Part shown: one piece after another, positions 1,771-41,790 of the stretch
Layout: each line of letters starts with the position of its first letter
Position numbering within the stretch: the first letter of the stretch is position 1
Notes under the pieces: model-generated
What the model saw: only the letters and a program-made list of their open reading frames with translations
What the model was told of the DNA's origin: nothing
Database searches by the model: none
Position numbers and translations under genes: made by a program
Assembly (NCBI GenBank): GCA_024679065.1
Contig: JAGIQG010000020.1
Location: 13,144,001 to 13,208,000, forward strand
Length of the DNA: 64,000 nt
From: Sphyrna mokarran
Lineage: Eukaryota
Direction: 5' to 3'

Positions 1771-4471
1771 CAAGGGATTAAACAAAAACCCCTCAGTTTA
1801 TTAATTTTATCACTTGCCTCAAGAGGTCTTCACTGATTTTGGAATGCAACATTTCACAAGTGTTTGGCTGAAGGTTACAAACAGCCAGATATGTTTGTTA
1901 AAAAGCAGTTGGGCAAGTAAACAATAGCAATGACATATAGCAGATTTACAGCAGTTCCATTCTTAACTATCCTTCCTTGTCAGACACAAAAGGCACTTTA
2001 GCCTGGCACAGTGCCCCTGAATACTGGGTATTGTTCACTGCTGACCATCCAGGGAATCTCCTGGGCTTATTAATATCTTCCCAATGGCTTCAGACAGACT
2101 GCTCAGAAAAACTGAGCTGAAAAATTCAAAAGGGCAATCAAAATTTAAATGTGTATCTCTTTAAGCTTGGCTGTTGACCAGGTCTATATTCTTCTTGTAG
2201 TGAGGTGATCAGAACTGCGCACAATACTCCAAGTGGGGTCTGACTTCTGGATGAGTACATGGGATTTAATGGGATTGAGAGTTACAAATAGGCCTGGTAG
2301 GTATGGATATGATCGGTGCAAGTGTGGGCCGAAGGGCTTGATTGTGCTGTAGTGTTCTATATCCAAACAAAATCACAGGGCATTTGATTTACTCAAGAGT
2401 AAGATCTCTCAGAATCTTCTCTGCAGACCCCCCCCGAGGGCAGCGGGGTGGGGAGGGGGGGGGGGTGCGGGGTGATTGGTGTACAGCTAGCAGCAATGAT
2501 TCAGGTTGGTACCAACAATATGGGTAGAAAGAGGGGTGTGGTAGTGCAGTTGGAGTTTAGGGAGGTAGGTGAAGGAATTGGAAAGCAGGACTTCAAAAGC
2601 AATAATTGTCAGTTTTATTCCTTGTCCAAAACGCCGGTGAGTATAGAATCGGGAAGATAAAGCAGATCAATGTGTAGCTGGGAAGGTAGGCCGAAAGGAG
2701 GCTACTTCAGATTCTGGGAGCATTGGGATCCGTTCTGAGGTAGATGGGTCCTGTCGCGACTGGTTGCATGTAAACACAGCCATCACTAATTCCTTGTGGG
2801 GTGACTTTCTAGTGCTTTTGGAGAAATTTTAAGTTAGTTTAGCAGGAATGCGGGAACCAGCAGTTTAAGGTTTATATATTAATGTCACACATAGGCTTAC
2901 ATTAACACTGCAATGAAACCACTGTGAAAATCCCCGAGTTGCCACACTCCGGCGCCTGTTTGGGTACACTGAGGGGGAATTTAGCACGTCTTTCGGACTG
3001 TGAGTGGAAACCGGAGCACCGGAGATATTACATGGGTAATATCTGAGAGAGGGGATTCTCAAGTGCCAAGGATATTGGGAGAGAAGAGTAGAAATTGATT
3101 GGAGTCAGCTTTCAAGAGTAATTAATGAAGTTTAAATTAGGATAACACTGAATGTGCTGAGTGTGCTAAATAAGATTGAGTTGCAGATACAGATAGTCAT
3201 GTGGTAATATGATGTGACAATAACAGCGGCCTGATAAAAGAAGGCCAGGACTGTGGATTATATTCCTGGGTAAAGCACGTTCAGGAAAAGGAGGAGAGGT
3301 GGCAAAATCGGTGGAGGAAGACATTGCAGTGCTGGAGAAAGAGGATGTTCCAGAGGTGTCGAGGACAGAATATGGAAGAAAAATGGTGCAATCACATTGC
3401 TTAATGTAGCCTGTAGGCCAACAACCATTAAGAAAGATGTACAAACTTGCAAGTAAATTACAGTGAGGTGAGGAATTAACAAATAGGATGGAGTTGATTA
3501 AAGATCAAATATGGGATTTGCACCATTGGGGGAGGAATGGGGGATGGCCAATTATAAATAAGTAGTTCTGCACCTGACTTTCCCAAGGAAGGAAAAATGT
3601 GGGATTTAAGGATTTGAAGGATTTAAAATATTTATTAAAAACTTATTTGATTCACTAATGTCCTTTTGGGAAGCAAATCTGCTGTCCTTCCTCGGTTTGG
3701 CCTACGTATGACTCCAGATCCACAGCAATGTGTTTAACTCTGAACTCAAGCCATTCAGTTGAAGGGCAATTGGAGGTGGGCAATAAATGCTAGCCCAGCC
3801 AGCAAAGCCCACATCCCACGAATGAATACAAAAACAATTGATAAGGAGAGGCTGTTCTTAAAAGTTGATGAGGACAGTTGAGATGCATCTGAGCGAAGTG
3901 AGTGGAAATTGCAGAGGCGTCTGGTCATAACTTTCTAATTTTCCTTAGACATGGGAAGCGGGGGTGATGCTGTGGGCATCAGAGGGTCAAGAGTGTCCAG
4001 CAGAGGGTGGTGAGTGTCTGGAACAAGCTGTCAGAGGGAGCAGCACAGGCAGGTACAATTTTGTCTTTTAGAAGCATTTAGACAGTTACATAGATAAGAT
4101 TGATATAGTGCAATATGGGCTAGGTTAGCAGTGAAAACTGGATAAGTTAGGCCAAAGGGCCTGCTTCAGTGCTGTAAACCTCTATGACTCTATATTGTTT
4201 ATTTAAATTGAACAGCTTGGACACCTTTAGATAGCAATTGTAGATAATCTGTTCTGGGATATCATGTAACAAACAAACTGCATCATTTTCTTCCAGTGGC
4301 CGTGAAACTTGAATGTCCTGTTATAAATAAACAAGATAATAACTTAACAGATCATGAAAATAGAATGGTAAAATTTTGAAAACAGACAGATCGATGTAAT
4401 GTCAAGTGAATGTTTGCCCACCCAGTGCATTTTCATACTCTAGTCTTTAAAACTTTGGCTGTATTTCCCAG

Positions 4472-4632
4472 GTGTCACTGAGGTGTACCGTGTGGCAAAG
4501 AGAGTGGAAGGTGGAATGAAAACTCTAAACATTAGCAACGAAACACTTCAGCATAGTCTGAGGGACATTGAGATAATCTGGAACAATCTGCAGGCTTTTA
4601 TCTCTCTTAGCCCCTCTGTGTTACGGATGCTG
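4472..4632 (+). CDS. Synergin gamma-like gene, internal coding exon
   Basis: Acceptor tatttcccag, donor ctg|gtaagt. Translates (x)VTEVYRVAKRVEGGMKTLNISNETLQHSLRDIEIIWNNLQAFISLSPSVLRML, matching the SYNRG C-terminal region as I recall it (GVVEVYRVTKRVELGIK...LKDIDKVWNNLIGFMSL). Upstream exons are probably outside the window. Confidence 0.9.
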
Positions 4633-8756: not shown

Positions 8757-9370
8757 TATATCTCTATGACATGGTGAAAGTTACTGCTAGTATTGTACAG
8801 CAAGTGGCAGTCTGGTCAAAGGGTTATGTTTCATACCCAGATTCTGCTTGCAAATCTGGCATTATTAAAAAGGAGTGCAAGTATTTGACCAATCTGAACA
8901 TGGAAGTGTTTTAGGAGAAAGGAAGTAGAGGTTGTGTTAATAGGGTTAATCAGGATTCTGACTGTCAAAGCATTCACAACTGTGGCATGTAAATCTGCCT
9001 CTCTACTCCTCTGGCTCTGCAGAATATTTAGTTGAAACTGATCATTTCAGATGTGAAGCTTCATCACTACTAGTCCCATCAGCCCAGCACTTAGTGCATT
9101 TGAACAATTAATCACATTTTGAACAATTTGTGCAGTCTGCCATCTGAAGGTATCTTATAGAATGCTATCTGCAAAAGGTTTTTAAAAAATTAACAAGGAC
9201 ATTTTTATAGAAAATGTGTTTGATGACTGATACATTGGTTAAGTTTATTTCCACATTTTGGCATGTGATTTACGTCCTCCACTCCAGTATAATATATCAG
9301 CCAATATTCTTTTTGTTGAAATGTGTAAGTTTTCTGGTTAACGGAAGATTTTTATTTTCTGTATCTATAG

Positions 9371-9472
9371 CCTGCTGAATCCACCCTTGACTGTTCAGCT
9401 GCGACTGCTTCAGGAAGTACTCAGAATGAAACCTGTGGAGTGTGTCTGCTCAAAACAATGAATGAACCAAAT
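9371..9472 (+). CDS. Synergin gamma-like gene, penultimate recognisable coding exon
   Basis: Acceptor tttctgtatctatag, phase 0 consistent with the previous exon. Translates PAESTLDCSAATASGSTQNETCGVCLLKTMNEPN, similar to SYNRG PDENSLDFSSC...ACGVCLLN. The 3' end assumes the GC donor AAT|gcaagt. Confidence 0.8.
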
Positions 9473-11284
9473 GCAAGTATAAATGATTCTGGTTTTCTTT
9501 TTCCACGTATTTTAAGAACGTAAGAAATAGGAGCAGGAGGAGAATATTTAGACCATGGACATGGTATGGCATGATGGTTAGCACTGCTGCCTCACAAACC
9601 TCCCCTGGTTTGATTCCTGGCTTGGGCCACAGTCTGTGTAGAGTTTGCATGTTCTCCCTGTGTCTGCATGGGTTTCCTCCGAGTGCTGTGGTTTCCTCCA
9701 ACAAGCTGGTTAGTTGCATTGACCCGAACAGGCACCAGACCTTGGTGACTAGAGGAATTTCACAGTAATTTCATTGCAGTGTTAATGTAAGCCTTCCTTG
9801 TGGCTAATTTGACTTTTTTGAATGGTCAGAGTTAATCTTCAACTTAACCTCAATTTTCCTGGCCTGCTCCCCACCCCTCCAAAAATAATCCTTGATTTCC
9901 CTTATCCCAAGAAATCAAAATCTATCAATTTGGGGTCTGGAATACATTCAGGGATTGAGAATTACAATCCTGTGAGATAGATCATTGCAAATGTTCACAA
10001 GCATGTGGGTGAAGAAATTTCTTCTTCTTCTCTCCCCAATCTTAGATTATTCAACTCTACTTGTGAGACTAATAAATAAAGATACAAAATATGTGTTTAA
10101 TATTGTTCCAATCTCTTTGTGCCCCATGATAATTTTTGCAGTCTCTGCCTCTAAGGGACTGATGTTTATTTTGGCTACTCTCCTTTTTTATACACCGGTA
10201 AAAAGGCTTACAGTTTGTGTTTTTATATTCATGACTGATTTATCCTCATTCTATTGCTTTCTTTATTAGCTCTTTCATTGCCTTTTTCTGATTTCTAAAA
10301 CTCTCTCAATCCTCACGCATACCACAGTTCTTTGCAACATTAGAAACCTTTTGTTTTAATCCAATTTCACGCTTGTACAAATCTTAAGACACAGATGTAT
10401 CTTTCTTGTTCAGTTTTTGTTTTTTAATGGAATATACTAAAGATTTTGAATTGTTTCTTTAAATGTTTCTCATATATATTTATTGCCAGCTCTCTCCTCA
10501 CCAGGTTTTATGTTTTAAGGTTCTTGTTTGGAACTGGAGTATGTCACTTTCTAACTTAATACGAATATAATTATGTCCTGATCATTATTTCCCAGCAGAG
10601 TTCTTTTTAACAATGAGATTACTAATGAACCCTCCCTCATTGTGTAATACTGGCTTTGCAAAAGCTTTATCCTTAGTTGGTTCATTGACATATAGTTCCA
10701 GATAACTGTTGCAAAAGTATTCTATTAATTTATTTTCTATATTGCCTTCGCTGTTTTTATTTGTCTATGTGAAGATTAAAGTCCCCCATTATTACTTTGC
10801 CTTTATTACAAGTTCCAATTATTTCTCATCTTAATACCATGTCCAGCAATATAACCATAGTTAGGGGGCCTATATACTACTCACATCAACTTTTTTTGAT
10901 CCTTGTTATTACTATACTCCACTCTACAGAAATTCTGCTTCCTAATCTTCTGAGCCAAGATCCTTTCTCACTGATATCCTTATATCATCCTTTATTTTCA
11001 GAGCTACTCCCTCTTTTCCATTCTGTCTGCCTCATTCTTGTTTGGAAGTGATGTGTACCCTGGAATATTTATTTCCCAATCTTTTCTTGAAAGTCAGATC
11101 AAGGATTGACAGTTTTAGTAGAAACTGATCATAGCTCGACTCTGTATGACAGTACATGTTTTGAGACCAAATGGATTTGGCAATTGGCTTTGCCAAAACG
11201 TACGTGCCTCGAATCAAACTGATATGCAAACTCTCCTAGATGTGCCCTGGATGGATTTTAAAGTTTTGGAACATTGGTAACGCA

Positions 11285-12012: not shown

Positions 12013-12228
12013 GACTTCAATGACGTGGAAAATTCAGTCCTTCACAATGGATGTCGCTATCACGCGAGCTGTGCAAACTTTTGGCTAAACTGTGTGGACT
12101 CAAATTTACCAGGGCTCCTTGCACCCCAGGACAATTCTGAGGCCTTGAATCTGGAAGCTGTCATGGTTCTTGGACCAAACTGCTTGGAGACCAGTTCTAA
12201 AGAGCTTATTGTTTCTATAGCTCATTGA
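12013..12228 (+). CDS. Synergin gamma-like gene, terminal coding exon
   Basis: Acceptor ctgttcctacag. Translates DFNDVENSVLHNGCRYHASCANFWLNCVDSNLPGLL...SIAH*, containing the SYNRG motif YHASCANFW(I/L)NCV....PGL. In frame with ORF 11923..12228. Confidence 0.9.
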   Translation, partial: DFNDVENSVLHNGCRYHASCANFWLNCVDSNLPGLLAPQDNSEALNLEAVMVLGPNCLETSSKELIVSIAH

Positions 12229-13355: not shown

Positions 13356-16300
13356 CTGTTGAATGCAATATTGCTGAACATTTCTCAAGACATGTGTGGA
13401 AATGTTAGTATTACTTAATAACACAAAATCTGGAACAGAATTGAGTTTTAAGCATTCAACTCCATAAGCCATTTTTACTATTAGCTGAGGTCCCTTGATG
13501 TTTTGGTGATCTTTGTCTGAAAATTTCAGGCAGAGAAACAGGGAAAGAGAGGACAATTCCCCATAGCAGACAAACAATACATAAAACAGTGGCTGCAATT
13601 TTCCTGTCCCACTCACCATGGGAATTGTAGTGGGTGGACATGGACCATGCGAAGATTTGTTGACCATGGGTGGGATTTTCCGGCCTTGGGGTGAGTGCGG
13701 TAGAAGAATCCCACCCAGTATCTTTTAGCCATACTATAATATATATGCAGCTTTACCATGGCTTTGAATCCAATTCAAAAGCACACACACAATAGTACTA
13801 TTTCACCGGGTACCCATGCTTATGTTAGAAATATTGTGCTATTGATGAATACCACTTACTCTTCTTAGGCAAGGGGATCAAATGTTATTTGGGGGTAATG
13901 AGAATGTGGAATTAGAAACACAAACAGATCAGCCATGATCTTATGGAATGGCAGAGCAGACTCAAGGGGCCAAATGTCCTCCTCCTGCTCTTAGTTCGTA
14001 TGTACGTAACTGCAGAGTACACAACTCCTGAGTGACATGTGGTCACAAAACAAACCCCAATTTACTGATAAAGATCTTGACAGAGGGCTTGAGTACATGT
14101 ATGTCTTATATGATGTCCTATAGTCAAACAAGAACTTCCTCAAAGTCCTTCACAATGAATGAGTGACTTGTGAAAATCAGTCACTGTGCCAACCATGCTT
14201 ACACATTAAGATTCCATACACACGAAAACCCAGTTACTTTTGGCCGGTATACTTGCAGAATTTCTTCTTCTTTACATGGGACTTTTTATGTCTGGCTAAA
14301 CAAATTCATGAGGGAATCCCAATTCAATGTCTTGTCCAGAAAGGACACAAGTAAGCAATGAGGATAGCTATGAGTTTGCCTCGTATGTTGATAAGCAATT
14401 TTGTCCAGCAAAGATATCGATTCTTGACAATTGCCATTGTTGTTTAGTATTCGTAATGTAGATTGAACTAGCAACCTGCGGCAATTATGACATCATGGAA
14501 AATAAACCTAGCAGGAAGCTCGACAAGCAAGCCCAGAAAGGTTAACCTAGGGGTTGAGTGAAAAATATGGTAACAATGGCTTTAAGCACTTAGCACACAG
14601 GGATGCAAGATGAAACCTTTTGAAATATTGAGAATGCATTGTACTTTGAAACAGTTATGAATACGTAACCTCTGCTTAGTTTAATAACCTAGTTCTGAAA
14701 CCAGTTAAACAGAAACAAATGCTGTTATCATCTCAGATGTTCTGAGAAATGATTAGGATGATGACAGAATGATGGTTTCTGTGGAATGACAACAGTTTAT
14801 TCTAAATGATGTATCATCCACACACCACTGGAGTTTTCAGGCTTTGAAAGCACTTTCATGTTTATAAAATTGTTTCTTCCATCAGAGCAAATAATCTATC
14901 CCAAAAACAATGTTCTTAATCATTCCTTTAAGGACTGTAGTGAAAAATGCAGTTCTTCCGAATGCCACATTCATCCCTTCTTTCTCATGTGCATGGTTAC
15001 AGGGAAAGGATGGGAAAAAGACGGGGAAATGGAACTAGATGAGTTACTCAGAGAGCTAGTACAGACATTGTGGACCAAATGGCCTCCTGTGCTGTAACAG
15101 TTGTGATTCTGTGACTAATTGATGACTCCACAGACTGGTTTAAGGCACTTTCCTTAGAAAATTAAAAATGGTGGTATTTAGTTTGATATCAAATGCCTTG
15201 TTTTTACTTTGCAATTATTTCATTGTTAACTTACTAACAGTTACCTTCTCAAGGCTCTGCACTCCACGGACATACTTCAAGTCTTCTAAACTGCCCATCA
15301 CTTAGTAAAGAATGGGAGACAAATGAGAACAGCACAAGGTGGGTGGGTGGGGGTATTGGGCATGAAGAAATGTGAGACTAATGCTGAGGTGTGGGAAGTA
15401 GCTGGGTTAGAGCTGAAGAGGACGGTGCTACGCTCACCAACTGCAACCCAATTTCAATAGTAGGGAAGCCTCTAGAGAGGATCATTTGAAACAAAAATTA
15501 ATTGGCATTTGGAAAAATATCAGCATGAGTTTGTTAGAAGTGAGCTATATTTGTTTAAGTACTTATTGCTCCCAATAAGGTGGATAAGATTAGTGTGATT
15601 ATTGTCCTGTATATGGATTTTCAAAAGACACTTGACAAAGTACATTATCACATTGACTTGTCAACAAGAATAAAATCTATGGGATTGAAGAGACAGTGGT
15701 TGAGCGGATACAAGACTGGTGCAGTGACAGGGTACATTGATGAAGTGCTTTTGTAATCTGAAATGCATTGGTATTCTTAGGAATTGGTGTAAGGGTCACT
15801 GTCCTTTCTGATAATTGTCGGTGATCTGGATTTGGATATACAGGGCAATAATTTCAAAGTTGCAGGCGATAGGGAACAGTAAAATATGGTAAATGATGAG
15901 AAGGATAACAATAAACATCAGGAGGCAAAATGGCAGACTCCTGAAATTTTAACAGAAAAACATGATAAATATTTTGCTGAGAAGAAGGTAAGGCACAATT
16001 TTAAATAGGGTGTGGAGTTGTGGGAATGAATGCACACAAATTCTTGAAGGCAATTTAAAAATCATAATATTAAAGGCTGCCTTTCAGTCCATCAAGAAGC
16101 ATGTCCAAAAGATGTGCTGATTAGGTGCTTTGGCATGCTATAGAGTTATAGAATTCTATAGTGCAGAAGGAAAACATTCAGCCCATGGATCCTGCACTGA
16201 CCACAATCCCACCCAGGCCCATTTCCATAACCCCATGCATTTAACCTAGTTAATCCCCCTTATACTAAGCGCAATTTAGCATAGCCAGTCCACCTAACCC

Positions 16301-16474: not shown

Positions 16475-17655
16475 CTGGAACACTAGTTCGCACTGCTGCC
16501 CCACTGTGTAAGGGATCTGGGATCGATGCCTGGCTTTGGGTCATTGTCTGTGTGAATTGTGCACATTCAACCCTAAACCTCACCCTAACTCTGACCCTAA
16601 CCCTAACCCGAACCCCAACTCTAATCCCAAACCTAACCTGAATCCGAACCCCAACCCTAACACCAATCCTAACTCTAACCCTATCTCTAACCCTAACCCC
16701 AACCCACATTCAACCCTAACCCAAACCGTAACCCTAACCCACATTCAACCCTAACCCTAACTCCAACCTTAACCCCAAACCTAACCCTAACCGTAATCCC
16801 AACTCTAACCCCAAACTCTAAACCTAACCCTAACCGCAACCCCAACCCTAACTCATATTCAACCCTAACCTGACTCCAACACTAACCCTAACCCGAAACA
16901 TTATCTCAACCCCAACCCACATTCAACCCTAACCCCAAACCCAACTCTGACCCTAGACCTAACCCACATTCAACCCTAACCTTTACCCTAACACCAACCC
17001 CAACCCTAATCCTAATCCACATTTAACCCTAACCCTAATCTTAACCCCAACCTCAACCCCAACCATAACCCTAACTCACATTCAATCCTAACCCTAATTC
17101 TGATGCCAACCCCAACCCTCAAACCTAACCCTAATCCTAACCTACATTCAACCCCCACCGTAACAGCAACCCCAACCCACATTCAACTTTAATTCTAACC
17201 CTAACCGTAATCGCAACCCTAATCCCACTCCAACCCCAACCCTAACCTACATTCAACCCTAACCTTAACCTCAACTCCAACCCGAACCCCCATACAAACC
17301 CCACCCCAATGCCAAACCCAACCCACATTCAATCCTAACCCACATTCAACCCTAACTCTAACCCTAAACCCAATCCTAACCCTAACCCCAACCACAAGCT
17401 CAACCCTACCTCCAACCCTAACCCACATTGAACCCTAACCCTAACCCCAACACCTACCTGACCCTAACCCACATTCAACCCTAAGCGTGCTCCAACTACC
17501 TCCCACAGTCTGAAAGACATGCTGGTTAGGTGCATTGGCCATGCTAAATTCTTCCTCGATGTATCTGAACGAATGCCGGAGTGGGGTGATCAAGGGTAAC
17601 TTCATTCCAGTGTTAATGTAAGCCTACTTGTGACACTAGTAAACTTAATAAAAAA
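16475..17655 (+). mobile_element. HE1/V-SINE-like SINE split by the telomere-like array
   Basis: 5' half (gcactgctgcc...gggtcattgtctgtgtgaattgtgcacatt) precedes the array. 3' half (gtgctcc...cctcccacagtctgaaagacatgctggttagg...gcctacttgtgacac) follows it. Confidence 0.85.
16569..17484. repeat. Degenerate interstitial telomere-like (CCCTAA)n array, about 0.9 kb
   Basis: Continuous CCCTAA/CCCCAA/CTCTAA hexamers with a recurring CACATTCAACCCTAA motif. Confidence 0.95.
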
Positions 17656-17849: not shown

Positions 17850-18194
17850 TCCAAGCCCCGCCCAGCAACAGGCCCCGCCCACGCAGTCCGCCCCCCCCCA
17901 AGCCCCGCCCACACGGCCCAGCCAGCAACAAACCACGCCCGCCCAGCCAGCCGCAGCTGAGCAACAGGCCCCGCCCACCTTCTTTATCTACATTTAGCCG
18001 CATAAATTAAAAAGATTCACATCTTCACATCCGATATCAGTACTGCAGTTACAAAACAAAACAACGGAATTTTGGAATTTCTAACAATAAAAGTATAACC
18101 GCAAAATTTACATCAAAAAAATACGATGCAACAATTCCCACATAATATGAGTATAAAATGTAGGCGAATTGGATCATTTATAAAGCATTTAGAC
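17850..18194 (+). promoter_or_regulatory. Putative type-3 (U6-like) RNA polymerase III promoter A
   Basis: Cluster of CCCGCCC GC boxes 17856-17975, octamer-like atctacat near 17986, TATAAAATGTAG at 18152 in the PSE position, and TTTATAAAGCATT at 18177 just before the N-run. Confidence 0.55.
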
Positions 18195-18328
18195 NNNNNN
18201 NNNNNNNNNNNNNNNNNNNNNNNNNNNNNNNNNNNNNNNNNNNNNNNNNNNNNNNNNNNNNNNNNNNNNNNNNNNNNNNNNNNNNNNNNNNNNNNNNNNN
18301 NNNNNNNNNNNNNNNNNNNNNNNNNNNN
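18195..18328 (+). ncRNA. 134-nt N-run; inferred hidden small Pol III RNA gene (U6 snRNA-like size), sequence not visible
   Basis: Only the flanks are visible. The Ns start 16 nt after the TATA, and the same layout recurs at 27704. Confidence 0.45.
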
Positions 18329-19775: not shown

Positions 19776-22700
19776 TTCAGATATGGCCCTATGGTTGGAT
19801 GAAGTACACTAAATTTCATTTTGTGATGGTCTGTTTGCTTCAAACTCCAGCCAGCGCACATCCTTATTTCTTAATTCTCATTCTTTTTCTGTATCAATGT
19901 TTGGAAATCCCAAAATAGAAAATCTAATGTAATGCAAGGGTAAAACCATGATCAAGCAGCTGATTTGCCCAGGACGAGGCTATTCCATTGCACTGTGGGT
20001 ATGCTGATGCCTGCGATGTCCCCAAATGCGGGATACTCAAATTCTGGGGCATGATTTGTTTAGCTTACTAGTGTGTGACAGAAAGTAAACAAATAGTTGA
20101 AGAAATCACTGCAGGATACAAAAGTCTTGTCAACATTGAGGATTCATGAGGCACTGGTCTTCACCTGGAAATTCTGCTTGCTGCAGCAACACCTATGCTA
20201 AAGCTGGAACAATACAAAGAGGTCTTGCTTAAAAAAAGATAGTCGATGTTGAAACTTTCTGTATTGCACTCATCATGGCAATTTGCAAGAACATATCCAT
20301 GGTCAAGTTTTTCATTGGTGTCACAAATAGGCTTACATTAACACTGCAATAAAGTTACTGTGAAAATCCCCTAGTTGCCACACTTTGGCACCTGTTGGAG
20401 TATACTGAGGGAGAATTTATCGTGGCCAATGCACCTAACCAGCACATACTGGGATCAACGACAACTTTATACTTTGTAGAAGAGAGATCTGATGGATTGG
20501 CAAGTGGATTCACATTGATAGAGAATGGTCATCATGGAGAATGCAGCAGTTGACGTTTACTGACAGTTCCTGCTGGCTTGCCTTAATTAATTCACACATC
20601 TCCAACTGAGTATTCATATTGCTCCATATTATAATTTCTAAAAGATTTCCCACCACCAAGGTAAAATTGGCTGGCCTGTAGTTGCTCAGTGTATCCTCAC
20701 ACCACTTACTGAAAAAGGGTGTCACATTAGCAATTTTTCCATCCTCCAGCATCACACGTTGGTCCTTTTTTAAGGTCAAACCAAATAAACAAACTCAAAT
20801 TAAATAAGGCAAAGGGGCAGCTCCCCAGAAGGAAGGGGAACAGCCCGAACAAAAACAAATTATAAAGGAAACTTAGAAATGTCAAATTAAAATGTGATTA
20901 TTAGGATCGATAATGCACCCCAGGCCATGCGGTGCCCAACAGCATCACACACTGGTATCTCAGCAGAATTGGATGAATATGGCCAGCTCCTCCTCAATTT
21001 TCACATTTACTTCCCGCAGTAACTCAAATGCAACTCAACTGGTCCTGGTAACCTCTCCACATTAAGTAGTCAGTTGTTTTAATACATTCTTTTAATTAAT
21101 ATTAGTCCATCTAATAACTCAAGCATTTCCTGTTTCACTACAACTTAGGCAACATCTTTTTTCTTGATAAAGATAGATAAAGTATTCATTAGTTTCTCAG
21201 CTACATGCTTCACTTTCACGCATAAATTCTCTATTTGGTCCCTAATCAGCTCCCCTCACCCTTCTTTACTGCAAAAGATGAGACTGAAACATTTTCAAAT
21301 ATTTTTAGACGGAAGTACTGAGTGGATGATCCATCTTGGCTGCCTCTTGATGATCACAGAAGCCAGTATTCAGCCAATCTGACTGACTCCAAGTGATATC
21401 AAGAAATGACTGAATGCTTTGGACTATGGACCCTAACAAAGTCCTAGCTGTAGTACTAAAAATTTGTCCTGTAGAGCTAGCTGCACCTCCAGCCAAGTCA
21501 TTCCAGAGGTTTCAATCCTGAAATCTGCCTCACACAGTGGAAAAATCATTCCAATATGTCTGAGTCACAAAAAGCAAGACAAATCTATTCCAACCTATTG
21601 CCACCACATCAGATCATAATAAAGGAGTAGGCTATTTGGCCTTTTGAGCCAGCTCCAACATTCAATAAGATCGTATCTGATCTTCTTACTGCATACTTTT
21701 CCATTCTATCCCTTCATTCCTCGATTTCCTTAGTATCCAAAAATCTATCGATATTTACTTTTATAATACTCAAGCCACTTTCATCCACAGCTCTCTGTAT
21801 ATTCAGGAAGAAAATTCTCCTCATCTCACTCATCAATAACTCATGTCTTACTCTTGAGTCGTTGGGTCAAAATACTAATGGCATTGTGGGCCATCCCACA
21901 GCACAGGGACTTCTGCATTTCAAGAAGGCAGCTTACCAACATCTTCTCAAGGGTAACTAGGGATGGGCAATAAATACTGGACAGCCAGCAATGCCCATGT
22001 CTGATAAATGAGTTAAAAAATTGTAACCCCTAGTTTTAGACTTGGGAAATTATAATTTGCCTTTCTCAAACTTCTCTTAATTATCAGCAGAAAATCGAAG
22101 GATCATTGGCAATGCTATCAAACGGCATTTAATCACCAATAATCTGGACATGGGTGTCCAGTTTGGATTTCACAAGGACCATTCAGAATTTAGAATAGTT
22201 TGAAATCTTAAATCAGAAATGGCAATAAGAGTTGAATGACTGCCCTTTATATCAAGGCAGCATTTGACTGTGTCATCGAGGAGACCTATTAAAACTGAAG
22301 TTGATGTGAGCTGTGGGCCTCTTCACTAGCTGAACTCATACCTAGCATTAAAAAAAATGGATGTTGAAGATCTCAGCCTCAGGACTTCACTTGAGGAGTT
22401 CCACAGTGCAGCGTCCCAGATTCAACCATCTTCAGTTGCTTTCTTAAATATCCTCACTTATTATCAGGTCAGAAGTGGGGATGTTCATTGATTAATGCAG
22501 TACTCATCTTCAGTCGTAATACTTTAGATCAAGATGACATCCAATTTTATTCATCACTTTAAACATTTGCTTCTTCTTTCACCAGTGCACAAGGCCACAA
22601 TGTGTATCATCCATGTGATGAATCGCAGCAACTCATCATGCAGTCGTCAATGGAATCAGGGACCTCTATGGCCCCCAAGAAGGGAGGCAGTTGCATGGGA

Positions 22701-24175: not shown

Positions 24176-24763
24176 TCAACAGGGGACCATTCCTCTTGTT
24201 TCTTTTTCATATATGTCTGGGACAACTCCCAGTGGTGACATCACCATTTTGATGCTTGTTTTTCCAAAGAGTCCATCTTCATACTCAATCAGCTGCTTCC
24301 AGAATCCGTTGTTGGGCCTAATTATAGGTCTGCATGCCCTCAACCAGGCATGAGCCTCGAGCAGTGACATTTGGTGATATTTCATGAGGTAAGCAAGGCA
24401 CAAAGTGGCAGATCTGCTTACTCCTGCAACACAGTGCAGCAGTGTTCATCCACGCAATTTTTCAACAAATTGGATTTTGTCCGCCACCACATCAAAGTAC
24501 TCGCTTAACTGCGCGCTGGGAGAATCTGCAACAGGAATGCTCATATACTCCAAGTCGGGAAACATAGGACTGATCACCCCTGGGGTCACACTGATTACAT
24601 ATGTGACTCCACTGGTCTGCAAGAGACTTTGGCTGTGTGAAGCAACGGCATTGCTTAAATACAAACTGCGTGTGATCAGAGCCAGGCCTGAGAGTCTTGG
24701 TGTCGGCTGGACAGAGTGAAGTGATGAAATGTTTTTCCACGTTGAGTGGGGACTCAAATCCAT
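24176..24763 (-). pseudogene. DUSP18: DUSP18-like atypical dual-specificity phosphatase, single coding exon with one in-frame TGA (nonsense allele, young pseudogene or base error)
   Basis: ORFs 24446..24763 and 24176..24403 are in one frame and join through ...[55 protein letters not shown]..., giving 195 codons plus the final stop. VADSP acid loop and HCxxGxSRS motif are intact. Diagnostic residues fit DUSP18 better than DUSP14. A polypyrimidine/AG acceptor precedes 24808 on the - strand. Confidence 0.85.
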
Positions 24764-26939: not shown

Positions 26940-27480
26940 AGGGCGAGGGGTGGCGGGAAGAAGAGCTGAGGCCTGGCCAGGGAAAGGCCTGGAGCCTACA
27001 CTAATCCAGAAGTGTGTACACAGCGGGCAGACAGCTCAACTCAATCATACCGGCACTGAGGGCAACACTGGCCCCTATCCCACTCGCTCCGGCCTCAAAC
27101 TCCCAAACCCCGGGGCCAGTCTCACTCATCCCAGCTACCGGCAACGACCCGCCGAGTCTGCCCAGTAACAGACCCCGCCCCATAGCAACAAGTCCCGCCC
27201 AATAGCCACTGGCCCCTCCCACCTAACCGACTGGCCCAGATCCGCCGAGACTGCCGAGCAATAGACCCCGCCCCATAGCAACAAGTCCCGCCCAATAGCC
27301 GCTGGTCCCGCCCACCTAACCAACTGGCCCAGAGACTGCCTAGCAACAGACTCCGCCCCATAGCAACAAGCCTCACCCAACCACCAACCGACCCCGCTCG
27401 CCCAGCCACGCGCAGCCGCAGTTCGCATCTGTCCAGCAATAGGCCCGCCCACCTAACCACCCGCCTGCCAAAGCCCCGCC
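26940..27480. promoter_or_regulatory. CpG-rich island with tandemly repeated GC-box, CCAAT and RFX-like motifs; candidate DUSP18-like promoter and/or upstream region of the Pol III gene
   Basis: About 2.5 copies of a roughly 85-90 bp unit (agaccccgccccatagcaacaagtcccgcccaatagcc...cccacctaacc). CpG is retained against a CpG-poor background. Lies about 2.2 kb upstream of the DUSP exon acceptor. Confidence 0.65.
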
Positions 27481-27486
27481 CATCTG

Positions 27487-27703
27487 ATCTGCATTTGCTG
27501 ACCAGAATCCACTGCGGTTACATTTACTTTACTTTCAATACTTAGCTTAAAAGGATGATAAATAATAAAAGTAAAAATTAATCTCCTTTGCTTCTGTATA
27601 TCTTGTGAATAATATATAAAAATCCTAATTTAAAAGAAAACAAAAAAAACCTCACCACCATATAAAAGTAGTTGCAATGCCCAATACTTATAAAGCATTG
27701 AGC
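27487..27703 (+). promoter_or_regulatory. Putative type-3 (U6-like) RNA polymerase III promoter B
   Basis: Octamer-like ATCTGCAT 27487, SPH/ZNF143-like CCAGAATCCACTGCG 27502-27516, PSE-like CTCACCACCATATAAAAGTAG 27651-27671, TATA TTATAAAGCATT at 27688. Spacing fits the U6 promoter layout. Confidence 0.7.
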
Positions 27704-27840
27704 NNNNNNNNNNNNNNNNNNNNNNNNNNNNNNNNNNNNNNNNNNNNNNNNNNNNNNNNNNNNNNNNNNNNNNNNNNNNNNNNNNNNNNNNNNNNNNNNN
27801 NNNNNNNNNNNNNNNNNNNNNNNNNNNNNNNNNNNNNNNN
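27704..27840 (+). ncRNA. 137-nt N-run; inferred hidden small Pol III RNA gene (U6 snRNA-like size), sequence not visible
   Basis: Ns start 15 nt after the TATA of a complete distal element-PSE-TATA arrangement. Identity is inferred from flanks only. Confidence 0.5.
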
Positions 27841-29389
27841 AATAGGTTCACATTTGCCCCTTTTTCACATTGATGTCTGAACACTCATTATCTTACGGTG
27901 ACAATGTTTTCATTTACCTCCTTCCCCGGGTTCAATCTTATTCATTCTGTGCCTCTAAAGCAGCAGTAATTATTCACCAATGCCAGGTATTCTTTGCAGC
28001 TGATCGCATAAAATCAGGGTAATTAATCGTACAGCACGTTTCACACAGTTCAAATGCCCCGAGAGCATTAACAAACATAACTTGAGGCAAGACGATAGAG
28101 GGAGATATTAGAACCAGTGCCCAAACAGGCAAGAGCTTGGGTTAAGAGTGAGGTATAGAATCCCAGCAGTGTAGAAGGAGGGCATTTGGCTTAATGAGAC
28201 TACAATTCCACCCAGGCCCTATCCTAGTTGCCCCACATATTTACCCTGATAATTCCCCTGACATTAAGGGGCAATTTAAACATGGCCAATCAACCCAACT
28301 CACACATCTTTGGATTGTGGGAGGAAACTGGAGCATCCGGAAGAAACCCATGCAGACACAGGGAGAATGTGCAAGCTGCACGCAGACAGTGACCCGAGGC
28401 CAGAATTGAACCTGGGTCCTTAGCACTGTGAGGTACCAGTGTTAACCACTGTGCCACCGTGCCACTCACAATGGAGAGGTTTCAGGGGCATTCCACAACC
28501 TGTGCACCAAGCTGCTGAAGACACAAGCTGAGCGATGGGACTTGAAGATGTGCCATATTGGGGAAGATATGCTTTGTACTTTGTCACTAATATTTGAGGC
28601 TTATTGCCTTATGTTGCTTTACATCTAGCAGTCTCTGGGCCATTGGAAACCTGATGTGTGATTGAAGATGTCCCCTGTCAGGACTCCATGGAAGCCCTGG
28701 CGTGTGAACATTTATGGAAATTGCCCGGGAAGTTTAAACTTCTGATGGGTTCATTCTCTGCTGCCTGGGGCCTTGTGGAAATGTCTCCAACCCAAAGCTG
28801 GGCCACAATTTGTTGCCGTTCTTAGTTGCATCTTGAGGAGGCAATGTTGGATTTTGTTCTTGGGCTGCTGGTTTGATACGCCTGAGTTGCTCATCAAGGC
28901 CGATTTAGAAGGCAGATAAGAGTCAACTAAGTCAGTCTGAGACTATAATCACTCTGCACCAAATTTCCAGACCATTCTCAACGCTCTCCACTTCACAACA
29001 AACTTGGCCTGTTCTCGAATGTTGTCAAAACAAAACTCATATATAAACCTCCTGCGTGTTAAAGGAGAAACTCTGGAATGTACTGGGCCCTCTCCAGGCC
29101 TTGGCAGGCACCTCTCTCAATAGGTCAGCACTAATGAGGAAATCCAATATTAGTCCAGCTATGCTAGCTCATCTTGCTACAAGCTAAGTCAGGCTTAGGA
29201 GGAGGTGGGAAGAGGATGGGCTCCATGTCCAGTAAGACTCTAGCTGGTCGTGATTTAGACAGACCTCCCTTGGAAGTCAGTGCTCAGGAGCCTTACGGAG
29301 CTACTTTGGAACTGGCTCTTTTTTGACAGTTTACTCCAGAATATCATCACTGCCTGGAATCCAAGCCAGGCTTAACGGTAATGCCTGGA

Positions 29390-30715: not shown

Positions 30716-31312
30716 TGTGGCACAGTGGTTAGCACTGCTGCCTCACAATGCCAGGGACCCAGGCTTGATTCCTGGTTTATGGGAATCCATGTGAAATTTG
30801 CTTCTCAGCCTTTTGGCTAAGATCAAGTGTAGTATCGACATGCTGTGCTTGGTTGAAGTTATTAGATTACGTTTTAGCTTCATTTGAAGCAATTTTTAAA
30901 AGCGGCATCTTGGCCTTTTGGCTAAGATGCAAATTAGATCAAGCCTTGGAGGAGAAGCTATATCTACTCCAATCAGCTTGGATCATGTAGATCAAGCTCA
31001 AGACAGAAGGTGAGAGCCCTGTCTTGTCAGCTTGTATCAGGAATGTCTCAACTTGTGGAGACTCTGAATTGGACTTGATTGGATTGAATTGGAATAAAAA
31101 GAAAAAAAAACTATATGGAATTTGCACATTCTGCCCATGTCTCCGTAGGTTTCCTCCGGGTGCTCCGGTTTCCTCTCACAATCCAAAGATGCACAGATAA
31201 AGTGCATTGATCATGCTAATTTCTCCCTTAGTGTACCCAAACAGGCACTGGAATGGCATTTAGGTGATTTTCACAGCAACTTTATTACAGTGTGAATGCA
31301 AGCCTATTTATG
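30716..31312 (+). mobile_element. HE1/V-SINE-like SINE hosting the U2-headed insertion
   Basis: Head gtggcacagtggttagcactgctgcctcac at 30717. Body resumes at 31111 (ggaatttgcacattc...ggtttcctccgggtgctccgg). Confidence 0.85.
30800..31110 (+). mobile_element. U2 snRNA-headed retroposon with A-rich tail and target-site duplication
   Basis: 30800-30836 matches U2 nt 4-40 at 36/37. A second U2 5' segment lies at 30905-30928. A-rich tail runs to 31110. Flanking 15-mers ccatgtgaaatttgc / ctatatggaatttgc match at 12/15. Confidence 0.8.
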
Positions 31313-31329
31313 AGCATACAGATAATCTA

Positions 31330-32210
31330 ACTAGGCAAGGGGTAATACTGACCTAGTCTTGGGAATGAGCATGGTCAGGTGGTTGATGTTTCAGTAGGGG
31401 AGCAGTTTGGGAACAGTGATCACAATTCAGTAAGCTTTAAGGCACTGATGGATAAAGATAAGTGTAGTCCCCAAGTGAAGGTGCTAAATTGAGGGGAGAC
31501 TAATTACAACAATATTAGGCAGGAACTGAAGAATGTAGATTGGGAGCAGATACTTGAGGGCAAATCAACATTGAGCATGTGGGAGACATTCAAGTGTAAG
31601 TTGATAGGAATTCAGGACCTGCACATTCCTGTAAGGATAAAGGATAAGCATGGCAAGTTTTGGGAATGTTGAATAATGAGAGATATTGTGAACCAAGTCA
31701 TAGAGAAAAAGGAAGCATTTATCAAGGCTAGGAGGCTGGGAACACACAAAGCAAGTGTGGAATGCAAGGAAAGTAGAAGGAAATTTGAGCAAGGAGTAAG
31801 AAGGGCTATAAGAGTGCACAAAAAGTCATTGGCCAGCAGGATTAAGGAAACTCCCAAGGCTTTTTACAAATATATAAAGAGCAAGAGAGTAGCTAGGGAG
31901 AGGGTTGGCCCAATTAAGGACAAGGGAGGGAATCTAGGCATGGAGCCAGAGGAAATGGGCAAGGTATTAAATGAATATTTTGTGTCAGTATTCATCAAAG
32001 AGATGGATGATGGGTCTGCGGAAGAGTGTGTAGATAGTTTGAGTTATGTTGAGATCAAAAAAGAGGAGGTATTGGGGCTCTTCAGAAACATTAAGATAGA
32101 CATGTCCACAGGATCTGATGGGATATACCCCAAAATACTGAGAGAGGCAAGGGAGGAAATTGCTGGGGCCTTGAGAGAATTTTTTGTATCCTCACTCGCT
32201 ACAGGGAAAG
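31330..32210 (+). mobile_element. CR1 LINE ORF2 internal fragment (endonuclease end and linker)
   Basis: ORF 31676..32269 contains IKETPKAFYKYIKSKRVARERVGPIKD...LNEYFVSVF...GSDGIYPKILREAREEIAGAL. An upstream degenerate LG.SDHNS motif lies near 31410. Confidence 0.9.
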
Positions 32211-32217
32211 TCAACAT

Positions 32218-32456
32218 AGTAAGAAGTCTCACAAACACCAGGTTAAAGTCCAAGAAATTTATTTGGTAGCAAAAGCCACTAGCTTTCAGAGCGCTTGCTG
32301 CTCCTACGTCAGGTGAGTCAGGTGTGTCTTTATATGCCCTGTTTGTGATCAGAACTCCTACCCACCTGATGAAGGAACAGCCAGTTCCAAAAGCTAGTGG
32401 CTTTTGCTACAAATAAACCTGTTGGACTTTAACCTGGTATTGTGAGACTTCTTACT
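32218..32456. mobile_element. Palindromic Penelope-like element with degenerate hammerhead motif
   Basis: Inverted arms of about 95 bp. Contains cac-ctgatga-aggaac...gttcc-aaaagcta-gtg. Confidence 0.7.
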
Positions 32457-33385: not shown

Positions 33386-34036
33386 ATAGATATAGATATA
33401 GAACATTACAGCACAGAACAGGCCCTTCGGCCTTCGATGTTGTGCCGACCAAAATAAAAAGCAATGCCCCTCCAAACTAAACCATTCCCTTCTCTTCCAT
33501 ATACTTATCAATTAACCTCTTAAACGCCACCAAACTTGGCGCATCTACAACAGCTGCAGGCAGGGCATTCCACTCCCTAATCACTCTTTGAGTAAAGAAC
33601 CTACCTCTGATATCCGTCCTATAACTCATACCCCTTAATTTAAAGCTGTGTCCCCTCGTGCTAGCTTTCTCCATCCTAGGAAAAAGGCTATCACTGTCCA
33701 CCCTATCTAAACCTCTAATCATCTTATATGCTTCAATAAGATCCCCTCTTAGCCGCCTCCTTTCTAACGAAAACAACCTCAAATCCTTCAACCTCTCTTC
33801 ATAGGACCTGCCCTCCATACCAGGCAACATCCTGGTAAACCTCCTCTGTACCCTCTCCAATGCCTCCACATCTTTCTTATAATGTGGGGACCAGAACTGC
33901 ACACAATACTCCAAGTGCGGCCGCACTAGAGTTTTGTACAGTTGCAACATGATGCTGCGGCTCCTAAATTCAATCCCCCTACCAATAAAAGCTAAGACTC
34001 TATATGCCTTCTTAACAACTTTATCCACTTGACTGC
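33386..34036 (-). mobile_element. Young CR1/HER1-type LINE, 5'-truncated, with open ORF2 C-terminus
   Basis: ORF 33477..34229 contains QVDKVVKKAY...LYKTLVRPHLEYCVQFWSPHYKKDVEALERVQRRFTRMLPGM...LERRRLRGDLIEAYK, typical of CR1 ORF2. The 3' UTR ends in TCTATA repeats. Confidence 0.95.
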
Positions 34037-37000
34037 CTAACAACTCAGATGGAGGTGGCAGATGAGTTGCAGCCCATGCATCCTCTTGTGCCATTCTCAA
34101 TGATGGCCTCTCTGCCAGTGATCTGATGGACCTTTTATCCCACCCTGGATACAGAATGCATGAAAAATGTGACAGCTGCCTGGCCGAAGCACCCCGTCCA
34201 CTCAAAATTGCTGACAATGACTTTTTCAAATGGCATTTATTGGCCTGTCAATTGTTGGGAAACATAGCTTTGACTTAAACACATGCCTACCAATTGAAAT
34301 AGTGCAAGTTAGCGCCATAATGTTGTCCCATTTCATGAACATTCATGTCAGCAGTCAATTGCTCAATGAGCCTATAGTGTCCTTCTTGAAATTCTAAAAC
34401 ATTCAAACAAAGCTCCTACAATATCTGTGCAGAGATTGTATGTTCTCCATGTGTCTGCATGGTTTCCTCTGGGTTTCTGGTTTCCTCCTACAGTCTGAAG
34501 GTAGGTGGATTGGCCATGCTAAATTGCCTCTTAGTGTCAGTGAGATCAGCAGGATAAATAATTGGCATTATTGGGACAGGGTGTGAGTGGGAGTGTTGAC
34601 AGTGCATGCTCGATGGGCCAAATTGCCTCATTCTGCACTGTAGAATATTTCTTCAGTGATTCTATATCAACTTCCATCATGATATGAAATTGATCTTTTT
34701 CTATACCCCAGTTATGATTGTAACACTACATTCTGCACCCTTTCCTTTCCTTCTCCCCCATGTGCTCTACGAATGATATGCTTTTTCTGTATAGCATGCA
34801 AGAGACAATATTGTTTACTGTATCCCAATACATGTGACAATAATAAATCAAATCAAATCAAATTAAATCCTTGGACTGGACAGGACATCCAGATGGTTAA
34901 AATGTGTCTCCTCTGCCAGGTCCTGTTTTCTCAACTCTCAAATGCTCGACATTCTACTGAAGGACTTGGCAACTGTTTCAATGACACTCTGAAGCTCACC
35001 TTGAAGAATAACAGCATTGACAATAATGACTGGGAAGAGTTTGCTACCAATGGTTCAAAATAACAGCAACTTGTCCATCGAGACATTTTGAGTCCAAATG
35101 CTTTAATGATGAGGCAGAGTTGCAGCATAGAAGAGGAGGAGATGGCCTAGTGGTATTGTTGCTCGATTATTCATCCAGAAACTCCTGTAATGTTTTGGGG
35201 ACCCGAGTTCAAATCCCATCACAGCAGATGGTGGAATTTGATTTAATAAAAATCTGGAATTCATTAAAAACTGATAGTCATTGTTGATTGTCGAAAAACC
35301 CATCTGGTTCACTAACGTCCTTCAGGGAAGGAAATCAACTATCCTTACCTGGACTGGCCTATATATGACACCAGAGCCACAGCAATGTGGTTGACTCTCA
35401 ATTGCCTTCTCAGGGCAACTAAGAGCTTTGCCCATGTCCCACCAATGAATAAATAAAAAGGAAAGTAGAGGAAGCAAATTCTGCACTTCAATCCCACTAT
35501 ATTGTGGGTCCATCTGCTCCATGTGGCCAAAGATTCAAGGGTCAAGAATCAGCCAGTTCAGCCACATGAAGGCCTGTGGCAGAATTGAAGGGCAACTAAT
35601 GCCGATGACCAACAAGGTATTATCAGTCCCATCCAATAGGGGGCAGCAAATCCCAATGTATCACCTTTGTACCAATGATTGTACCAATTATGAAAGTGAA
35701 GGGTAGGGGTCATAGCCGAGGATCTGCAGGCAGCAGTGAAGGAGCATCACTCATTGTTAACCTCCTAAAAAGTCGCCCACAAAGAGTTTTGAGCGCGGAT
35801 TTTCTTTATTCCAACATGACTTTAAATTTAAAGGGGATGTGTGGCATCCACCAATAGGGCAAGAGCAGGCAGGCTAATCAATCAGACAAATGACTTCTCA
35901 TGAAAGACAAAACAAGAAGCGAAAAGCAGTTTCTATAATTCAAACTTTAATCATTGTACACAAACGGAATTTAAAATTGGGACCCACCTTGGATTCAAGG
36001 GGGAAATGGAAATTGGGTATATATAAAAAATAAAACCTTACACTTGGTTTTATGATTTAAAAAGTCATTAGAACAAAGGAAACAGGAATAGGAGTAGACC
36101 ATATAGCCCAATAAACACACTCAGAGCTGGCTTTTTACTCAATTTCACTTTTCCCTTCCATCGTTTGATTCTCTGTTAGACCAAAAATTTATCTTAACCT
36201 TAAATACATTCAACAATGGGGCATCTATAACACTCTGAGGTGGAGATGCTGGAAGGTTTACAATCCTCAGAATGAAGTAATTTCTCCTCCTGTCAGTTCT
36301 AAGTGAGTGAACCAATATCCTCACTCTTTGTCCCCGTGTTCTAAACTCCCCAGCCAGGAGAAACAATTTTAGTTAAACCTTGTTAATATTATAAAGTATA
36401 TTTATTAGCGTCACAATAGGCTTGCATTAACACTGCAATGAAGTTACAGTGAAAATCCCCTAGTTGCCACACTCCAGCGCCTGTTCAGGTACAGTGAGGG
36501 AAAATTTAGCATGGCCAATCCATCTAACCAGCATGTCTTTCAGACTCTGGGAGGAAACCAGAGCATTTGGAGGAAACCTACTTATCATTTGCTTGCCTAA
36601 TTGCTTGCCATACCTGCATACTCATTTCCAATGTTTGTACACATCCAAGGTTTCCTGGACATCAATGTTGACAAGTCACCCATCTTTTAAATAACATTCA
36701 GCTTTTCTATCCTTTTTACCAAGGTGAATAACTTCACACGTCCCCACATTATACTCCGTTGACCATTTTGTTGATCATTCACTTAACTTATGTGTCTTTG
36801 TAGATACTTTGGGTGGCATTTTCCGACTGTGTTTGCCCGAAACCGGAAAATCTGCCTGAGGTCAAGGGACATATGCATGGTCTGTGCCCTTGCTAACTAC
36901 AATTCCTGTGGTGGGCAGAACAGGAAAATTTCCCCCTTTGTGTCCTCCTCATAGCTTATCCTCCCACTTAGTTTCTTAACATCAGCAAACTTAGATATTT

Positions 37001-40372: not shown

Positions 40373-40812
40373 ATCAGCAGACTCCAGTTATGTATGAACC
40401 GAGCAGCAAGAGGTGTAAATATGTGATAGTGGCTTGGCCACTTGCTTTATAGCCGGCTCAAATTTCCTTCCCATTCACTTCAATGGAAAAGAAAATGGCA
40501 GGGGGAGCAGTGAGTGTTTAACGGGCAGGCAATGCACTGGACTTCCAGCGACAAGGGAAGAGGCCAGCCCAGCATTCTATCTGACTCGACGTGAGCGATG
40601 CCACAGAAAATCTGCTGATTATGTAAGGCCTGTGCAACTGAATGAAGTAAGAGATTTAAGGTTTCAGTCTGTTCTGGGTTTCACTCTTTGGAGACTAAGA
40701 GGTCAAGGGTGAATCCTGAAGTAGGTGAGAAGACTGAACCAAGAAGAGTTACCCAGAAGCAAAGAGTAATATGGGACAGTAATTCCAGGCAGAATACTGA
40801 CTTCAGGTGGAT

Positions 40813-41790
40813 GCTCCTCAACGTTTTGGCTAAGATCAAGCGTAGGATCAAGCCCGAGGTCAGATGTAATGTCTTGTTAGCTTGGATCTTATATGTCTCT
40901 CCTAATGGGATTGTGAATTTGTTGCCTGTGAAATATTATGTACAGACACTTTGACCAGCTTATTACGGAGAACACATTTACTCAGGTACTCTTACTTTAT
41001 GAGACAAAGAATTGTGGTTTGAACTTAGCTTCATTGAAACAATTGCGAGTTAAAGAAACAACTCTTAATGAAATTAAGTTAACTTTTTCTCAAACTAGAC
41101 GGACTGCCTGAAAACACAAGCTAACCGTTCTGCTGAAGATGACAAGGCTGTTAGGGTGAATTCACTGAGTTTGTGTTGACAGATGAATTCAGGGATTTTC
41201 TTAGTATGAATGTAGACCTCGCACGTGCTCTTCCGTCGATTTGGATTGCAGTACGCTGGTCGAGAGCTCACTGCGGTTTTTCTTAAGATGTCTGTTTTCA
41301 TTCTCCTCTTTGAGCTCTTCTGGAAAGCTCTCTGGGTTGCAGCCAATGGGGATGACAGGGCAAGGGGTCTGTCATCCCCTGCCTTGTCATCCCTGTCTTT
41401 GGTGCAACCCAATGAGGTTAGGCCAGGTCATCTTAGGATACAAATCCCCTTCCAAGATATGGTTAATAGCAGGGAGTCTGACGGAACCTAGGGAATATAC
41501 AATCATAATGTCCTCTGACTGAGAACCTCCTGTTGGATTCTAGATCATACAGTTCCCCCATTGTTCAGGCCAAGCACCCCTCTTCAACATGCAAGACCTG
41601 GGCTGGTCCCTGTTGGGTTTTGACCTGCAGTAACCATGTCTGCATTTCATCAAGCTTTGTTTCTAGAAGCAGTTTAGCTGTATATTAAAGTATCCAATTT
41701 TATGTTGGTCCTCGTTACCCCGGCCATACATTGGATTCAATCTGAAGTTGTATTTTTTTTTGAGCAAGCGAGGAGATGGATTAAGGGCTG
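40813..41790 (+). mobile_element. Second U2-headed element, interrupted by an insertion of about 810 bp
   Basis: 40813-40849 matches U2 nt 4-40 at 31/37. Body is homologous to the 44512 copy up to about 40919 and resumes at about 41731 (ttggattcaat...gagcaagcgaggagatggattaagggc). Confidence 0.7.
40920..41730. mobile_element. Possible solo LTR inserted in the U2-headed element
   Basis: TG...CA-bounded 811-bp block, defined by its absence from the homologous copy at 44512-44670. No clean target-site duplication seen. Confidence 0.4.

Follow-up and report, generated by a model that had tools for sequence, protein, structure and literature searches.

Vertebrate U6 snRNA genes (human RNU6-1, -2, -7, -8 and -9; fish U6 promoters) are the closest described systems to the locus reported here. 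According to the accounts of promoter layout in the cited sources, their PSE lies at -65 to -48 and their distal element at -250 to -170 (PMC9652321), the TATA box extends from -31 (PMC2235858, PMC8041756), PSE and TATA are separated by a spacer of 15-19 nt (PMC7949045), and Pol III is specified by the TATA box that lies downstream of the PSE (PMC9652321, PMC5493778). Five active U6 genes are described in human, among which U6-7 and U6-8 are separated by 1 kb, and U6-7 combines a suboptimal PSE with the weakest Pol III occupancy (PMC2082468). For salmon, 65 candidate U6 promoters with varied elements have been listed (PMC11541246), and in the tilapia and medaka genes that were compared, the U6 bodies are highly conserved but the promoters are not (PMC8041756). 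Y RNA genes, which are also small type-3 genes, form a cluster of three to four paralogues in the vertebrates surveyed (PMC4378963).

Here, we describe two putative type-3 Pol III units in a 64,000-nt stretch of the Sphyrna mokarran genome (the window, that is, the whole stretch of DNA that was analysed). The locus resembles vertebrate U6 genes, most fully in unit 2, in its distal octamer and SPH site near -220, its PSE near -65 to -48, a spacer within 15-19 nt and a TATA box near -30; those genes are about 107 nt long and exist as several dispersed active copies, whereas the shark body is unreadable. Unlike vertebrate U6 promoters, the shark distal region carries a repeated AGCAAC-plus-GC-box unit, and one of the two units (unit 1) lacks the TCACC core of the PSE. 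Human RNU6-7 and RNU6-8 are likewise a neighbouring pair in which one member has a suboptimal PSE and is less occupied by Pol III, but they are described as lying on opposite strands at a distance of 1 kb, with no annotated gene close by, whereas the two shark units share a strand, are 9.5 kb apart and flank a DUSP18-like gene. The vertebrate Y RNA cluster, with genes of 84-112 nt, differs in having three or four paralogues of unequal length where the shark has two units of near-equal length.

Two N-runs phased to a shared TATA box

The window contains exactly two runs of Ns, 271 Ns in total, namely N-run 1 at 18195..18328 (+, 134 nt) and N-run 2 at 27704..27840 (+, 137 nt). Judging by the geometry, each would conceal a small RNA gene, most likely U6, starting near 18207-18210 and near 27717-27720, respectively. 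A distance of 9,510 nt separates the units, which share a strand and enclose the DUSP gene, in agreement with a sequence-only reading of this DNA, which had described two units in the same orientation bracketing a DUSP gene at 9.5 kb. That reading had also reported the same ordered motifs upstream of N-runs of 134 and 137 nt. The four motifs that it wrote out in full each occur exactly twice in the window, once before each N-run: atct(a/g)cattt at 17986 and 27487, actgc(a/g)gttaca at 18042 and 27511, TATAAAA(T)GTAG at 18152 and 27661, and a TATA 12-mer at 18178..18189 (+, unit 1) and 27688..27699 (+, unit 2), which is identical in the two units and found nowhere else in the window.

The Ns follow the start of the TATA 12-mer by 17 nt in unit 1 and by 16 nt in unit 2. 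Counted from the T of TATA, TATAAAA(T)GTAG lies 27 and 28 nt before and the Ns begin 16 and 15 nt after (units 1 and 2, respectively), and the offsets of 27-28 and 15-16 nt given earlier hold on this count. When 40-nt stretches were drawn from the window as 100,000 random pairs, 24 pairs had a word of at least 12 nt in common, and only 2 had one within 1 nt of register. The phasing of the N-runs to the shared TATA box is therefore not chance, as had been argued on the grounds that independent gaps would not be phased to 1 nt.

Promoter anatomy of the two units

Consensus motifs were scored as printed in the relevant parts of PMC5493778 (the octamer consensus among them) and PMC5006282 (SPH). 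Unit 2 opens with a distal GC-box cluster and CpG island (27149..27482, +) comprising eight CCGCCC hexamers and a 93-nt tandem unit in 2.5 copies. This is followed by an octamer (27487..27494, +; 1 mismatch, about -231), an SPH (Staf/ZNF143) site (27499..27516, +; about -219, with 2 mismatches against the consensus of 18 nt) and a PSE (27652..27669, +; 2 mismatches, about -66 to -49), with a spacer of 18 nt to the TATA box. The SPH score is equalled at 8 of 127,356 window positions, no PSE-plus-TATA composite other than that of unit 2 occurs on the two strands of the window, and, with the TATA box as anchor, the octamer, SPH and PSE matches have a joint chance of about 3e-6. The spacer falls within the published 15-19 nt and the octamer and SPH site lie near -250 to -170; in both units, the TATA box is about 25-31 nt upstream of the inferred start site, which was assumed to lie 29-32 nt after the first T of TATA.

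Unit 2 thus has the anatomy of a textbook type-3 RNA polymerase III promoter in published order and spacing, and the presence of all type-3 elements in it at published spacing favours the same-strand Pol III pair proposed before. Part of the earlier description needs to be amended, as TATAAAA(T)GTAG is present in both units but is the 3' half of the PSE and not a TATA element of its own. Similarly, the 'actgc(a/g)' of another shared motif is the end of the SPH site. We consider it very probable that the two N-runs with their promoters represent a real pair of type-3 Pol III gene units.

In unit 1, the distal GC-box cluster (17857..17980, +) is CpG-rich and includes six CCGCCC hexamers and a 30-nt tandem unit. 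Downstream of it are a weak octamer-like site (17986..17993, +; 2 mismatches, about -222) and a motif matching the 3' end of the unit 2 Staf/SPH site (18042..18053, +); consensus scoring found no full SPH site in unit 1 better than 4 mismatches, and a further octamer match with 1 mismatch occurs at -102. At the PSE position (18142..18159, +; 18-nt spacer to TATA), the 3' 13 nt fit the consensus and all 4 mismatches fall in the TCACC core, in which four of the five bases differ. The best register is the one with a spacer of 18, and a match this good has a chance probability of about 7% in a 5-position window. Immediately upstream of this PSE, the two best M4-pattern matches have 2 mismatches each (background 0.0014 per position); a ZNF143-like word found there, for which the comparison site was SBS2 as given in PMC7154149, lies outside both and was not counted.

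Replacement of the C-G pairs at PSE positions -62 or -61 by A-T has been reported to cripple, not abolish, SNAPc binding in vitro (PMC9652321). With both of these pairs gone and the TCACC core lost, unit 1 is probably weaker or silent, as far as activity can be predicted from the motifs. A variant of our preferred explanation of the pair, not exclusive with it, holds that unit 2 is active and unit 1 a dead or nearly dead copy. The missing C-G pairs, the want of a good SPH site and the 2 mismatches of the octamer point in this direction, but the identical TATA 12-mer, the equal 18-nt spacer and the fit of the 3' 13 nt of the PSE to the consensus do not, nor do the GC cluster, which is still CpG-rich, and the masked length, which is nearly equal to that of unit 2. 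Further, no change around one residue abolishes SNAPc binding (PMC9652321), and we regard a dead unit 1 as less likely than not.

Likeness of the two flanks and origin of the pair

The distal GC blocks of the two units align with a score of 65 against a shuffle mean of 43, a score reached by 1 of 1000 shuffles. For the 330 nt upstream of TATA, the score is 70 versus 30 for shuffles and is reached by none of 1000, but it overstates the likeness because shuffling also destroys the layout of GC-rich and AT-rich blocks. Between the octamer and the PSE, the two units align no better than shuffles (618 of 1000 reach the score), and the short middle motifs are therefore not significant by alignment. 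The 3' flanks of the two N-runs give a borderline alignment (35 of 1000). A profile search with the upstream region of unit 1 matched unit 2 at E 4e-4, the reverse search at E 0.21, and neither profile search nor promoter motif scoring detected a third unit in the 64-kb window.

Both promoters stand out in composition, holding 14 of the 25 CCGCCC hexamers of the window and the most CpG-rich 300-nt intervals (observed/expected 0.55-1.0 vs 0.28 overall). A compound motif of AGYAAY followed by a GC box, a pattern defined after viewing the sequences, occurs eight times in the window (two in unit 1, six in unit 2), and all eight copies lie inside the two promoters, at 17864-17977 and 27164-27450. 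The first half of this unit resembles what we take to be an RFX half-site. A telomere-like repeat of 6 nt, in about 150 degenerate copies, occupies 16569-17470 and ends 400 nt upstream of the unit 1 promoter.

The shared flank might have proved to be the end of a dispersed repeat family, an outcome that the sequence-only reading had named as its own refutation. Self-comparison showed many interspersed repeats in the window, none touching either unit except the 93-nt tandem of unit 2, and neither self-comparison nor profile search found a further copy of either flank within the 64 kb. The flanks are not the end of any repeat family seen in the window, and an old local duplication, albeit not datable, is the simplest reading of the pair.

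Neighbouring genes

Upstream of unit 1, a synergin-gamma-like gene is represented by its last three coding exons (about 4471-4632, 9370-9490 and 12013-12228, +). In its comparison, 16 of 61 candidates passed, and the named ones were all from sharks or rays, with the best being Mustelus asterias at 87%. The gene matches short shark and ray proteins (164-256 aa) that bear only the synergin C-terminal domain, and is possibly a cartilaginous-fish paralogue, judging from these matches.

The DUSP18-like coding exon (24176..24763, -) lies between the units and is 93% identical to an M. asterias protein. Both neighbours point to a shark with Mustelus among its relatives. Its codon 106 is an in-frame TGA (24446-24448, -), four codons before the catalytic HC motif, where seven of the eight aligned shark orthologues have R and one has K. 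This stop may reflect a recent nonsense change, a polymorphic site or an error in the consensus. About 45 nt before the ATG (about 24810, -), the exon is preceded by a pyrimidine tract plus AG. On the minus strand, donor-like sites occur at 27051, 27126 and 27378 inside the unit 2 CpG island, and a second SPH match at 26942. The DUSP18-like first exon may start head-to-head with unit 2, to judge by such signals.

A Pfam scan of 415 of the 485 non-repeat ORFs of at least 42 aa returned only two DUSP pieces above or near cut-off, plus three sub-threshold matches. Since the library missed the synergin exons and the scan left out 70 non-DUSP ORFs between 18540 and 27629, this negative leaves room for a gene beyond unit 2. 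Long open frames at 31673-32269 (+) and 33477-34247 (-) have no Pfam match and read like what are presumably LINE retrotransposon fragments.

On a more novel reading, the pair would be a U6 locus, or one for another small RNA, under special regulation, in which unit 1 would be active without the TCACC core and the AGCAAC-plus-GC-box module and the unit 2 CpG island would also drive the opposite-strand DUSP18-like gene. We think this improbable; if true, Pol II and Pol III would have one promoter in common, through which a copy of a spliceosomal RNA would be coupled to a tissue programme, with conservation in sharks.

What the Ns may hide

The Ns set in 12-15 nt (unit 1) or 13-16 nt (unit 2) upstream of the predicted start site, at a point where the two copies do not share their sequence. 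If a symmetric 3' margin is assumed, the hidden core is 104-110 nt in unit 1 and 105-111 nt in unit 2, and if the 3' margin is dropped, the upper bound of the body is 119-124 nt. The two sides of each gap do not overlap, the longest words that they share being 8 and 9 nt. No T-run directly follows either gap, with the first run of at least four Ts at +30 and +21, and the terminator must therefore be under the Ns. Had identical gene bodies caused the breaks, these should presumably fall at the body or within it. Because the Ns start upstream of the start site in copy-specific sequence and there is no gap overlap, blanking with a margin fits better than assembly collapse. Of the two fates proposed earlier, bodies masked or collapsed, the first is thus retained in the form of masking with a margin, and the second fits less well.

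With the hidden letters unreadable, the identity of the genes has to be inferred from geometry and the assumed symmetric margin, and they are most likely two U6 snRNA genes, the core of 104-111 nt matching the 107-nt U6. A routine gene pair is the most likely outcome because the promoter is standard and the size fits ordinary U6 genes. To our knowledge, U6 varies hardly at all among vertebrates, which would make it a likely target of blanking. In PMC13484765 (Table 1 for the lengths of U6 and U6atac), U6 is given as 107 nt and multi-copy, U6atac as 126 nt and single-copy, U11 as 135 nt and U4atac as 131 nt, while the sizes quoted in PMC10498592 and PMC12193147 are 84-112 nt for Y RNAs, 88-100 nt for vault RNAs and 270-341 nt for 7SK, RPPH1 and RMRP. 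An Rfam scan of the whole window gave no match at either gap, and ARAGORN reported nothing at either. 7SK, RPPH1 and RMRP do not fit, as the gaps are too short and RNAs of such length would leave an Rfam-visible remainder downstream, where none was seen.

A U2 fragment close to the Rfam consensus over about 38 nt was left unmasked, and blanking therefore appears to need a longer match. U2 snRNA 5'-end fragments are found at 30797-30836 and 40812-40849 (+), about 38 nt in length and 87% alike; the first comes after a tRNA-like repeat head, and both look like truncated retro-copies. The interval between unit 1 and the DUSP gene contains a truncated, diverged U1 snRNA pseudogene (19938-20040, +; Rfam E 9e-11, model positions 16-119 of 166). 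A weak U6atac match at 13356-13474 (E 0.15, below gathering) was taken as chance.

The mechanism that we propose involves two same-strand type-3 Pol III genes that would have arisen by an old local duplication and now flank the DUSP18-like gene. Following the established type-3 pathway, Oct-1, Staf/ZNF143 and Sp1 would bind the distal element, SNAPc the PSE, and TBP/BRF2/BDP1 the TATA box. Pol III would start about 30 nt downstream of TATA and stop at a T-run inside the Ns, yielding for the major spliceosome an RNA of about 107 nt. Ns would have taken the place of the conserved gene bodies and of a margin of about 15 nt at either end. Unit 2 would be the strong copy and unit 1, without the PSE core, presumably weaker or silent.

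Two Y RNAs, or vault-type RNAs, behind the same promoters are an unlikely alternative to U6. Y RNA genes are type-3 genes of 84-112 nt, the larger of which would fall in the 104-111-nt range (in the sizes given by PMC10498592), and they form clusters in the vertebrates covered by PMC4378963. Their paralogues, however, are described as differing in length and having divergent loops (PMC10498592), whereas the N-runs differ by 3 nt and share the same offset, and the cluster known from PMC4378963 has 3-4 members, whereas only two units are present within 64 kb. Vault RNAs, in the human examples of PMC10498592, are 88-100 nt long and have hybrid promoters.

Hidden genes of about 120 nt, either U6atac or 5S rRNA with an upstream TATA, would require the Ns to cover little 3' flank, and we rate them slightly lower still. 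The Ns do span 119-124 nt from the predicted start, close to the sizes stated for U6atac (about 120-126 nt) and 5S (about 120 nt) in PMC12193147 and PMC13484765. Nevertheless, such genes need a 12-16-nt margin at the 5' end and none at the 3' end; a 126-nt U6atac exceeds the 124-nt maximum from predicted start to gap end, no T-run follows the gaps, and the single human gene described in PMC13484765 contrasts with two copies here. As for 5S, its promoters are internal in the description of PMC12193147, not of the PSE/SPH/octamer kind.

It is highly unlikely that the Ns are ordinary scaffold gaps or collapses beside the end of a dispersed repeat, with no gene inside. Short multi-copy sequences do break assemblies, but the phasing within 1 nt, the lack of another copy of the flank in the window, the lack of overlap across the gaps and their start in copy-specific sequence upstream of the start site all speak against it. 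Minus-strand Pol II snRNAs with the N-runs as their bodies are the least credible alternative and were rejected, for although the run lengths match U11 (135 nt) and U4atac (131 nt) and a minus-strand PSE-like 18-mer (27884-27901, 2 mismatches) points into the gap from 61 nt beyond N-run 2, a Pol II-type distance, that 18-mer has a chance of about 0.03 per flank, is probably chance and has no counterpart in unit 1, the 3' flanks hold no octamer better than 2 mismatches, no SPH better than 3 and no TATA or CpG island, the search of both strands for a 3' box gave nothing better than background (3-4 mismatches at best), and the shared plus-strand TATA would be left unexplained.

Implications

The oddity of the pair most likely comes from the blanked sequence and not from biology. 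Runs of about 135 Ns that stand in phase with a TATA box, 16-17 nt behind it, would offer a recognisable signature of blanked small-RNA genes. Judged by title and abstract, the literature searched contains no shark U6 promoter and no U6 locus beside DUSP18-like or synergin-gamma-like genes, the latter search having been made without DUSP18 or synergin as query names and carrying little weight. The pair itself is most likely ordinary, as vertebrates normally have several U6 genes that are dispersed or paired and differ in strength. In fish, endogenous U6 promoters can matter, as presented in PMC8041756 and PMC11541246, and unit 2 would be a ready candidate for a native shark U6 promoter from which guide RNAs or shRNAs could be expressed.
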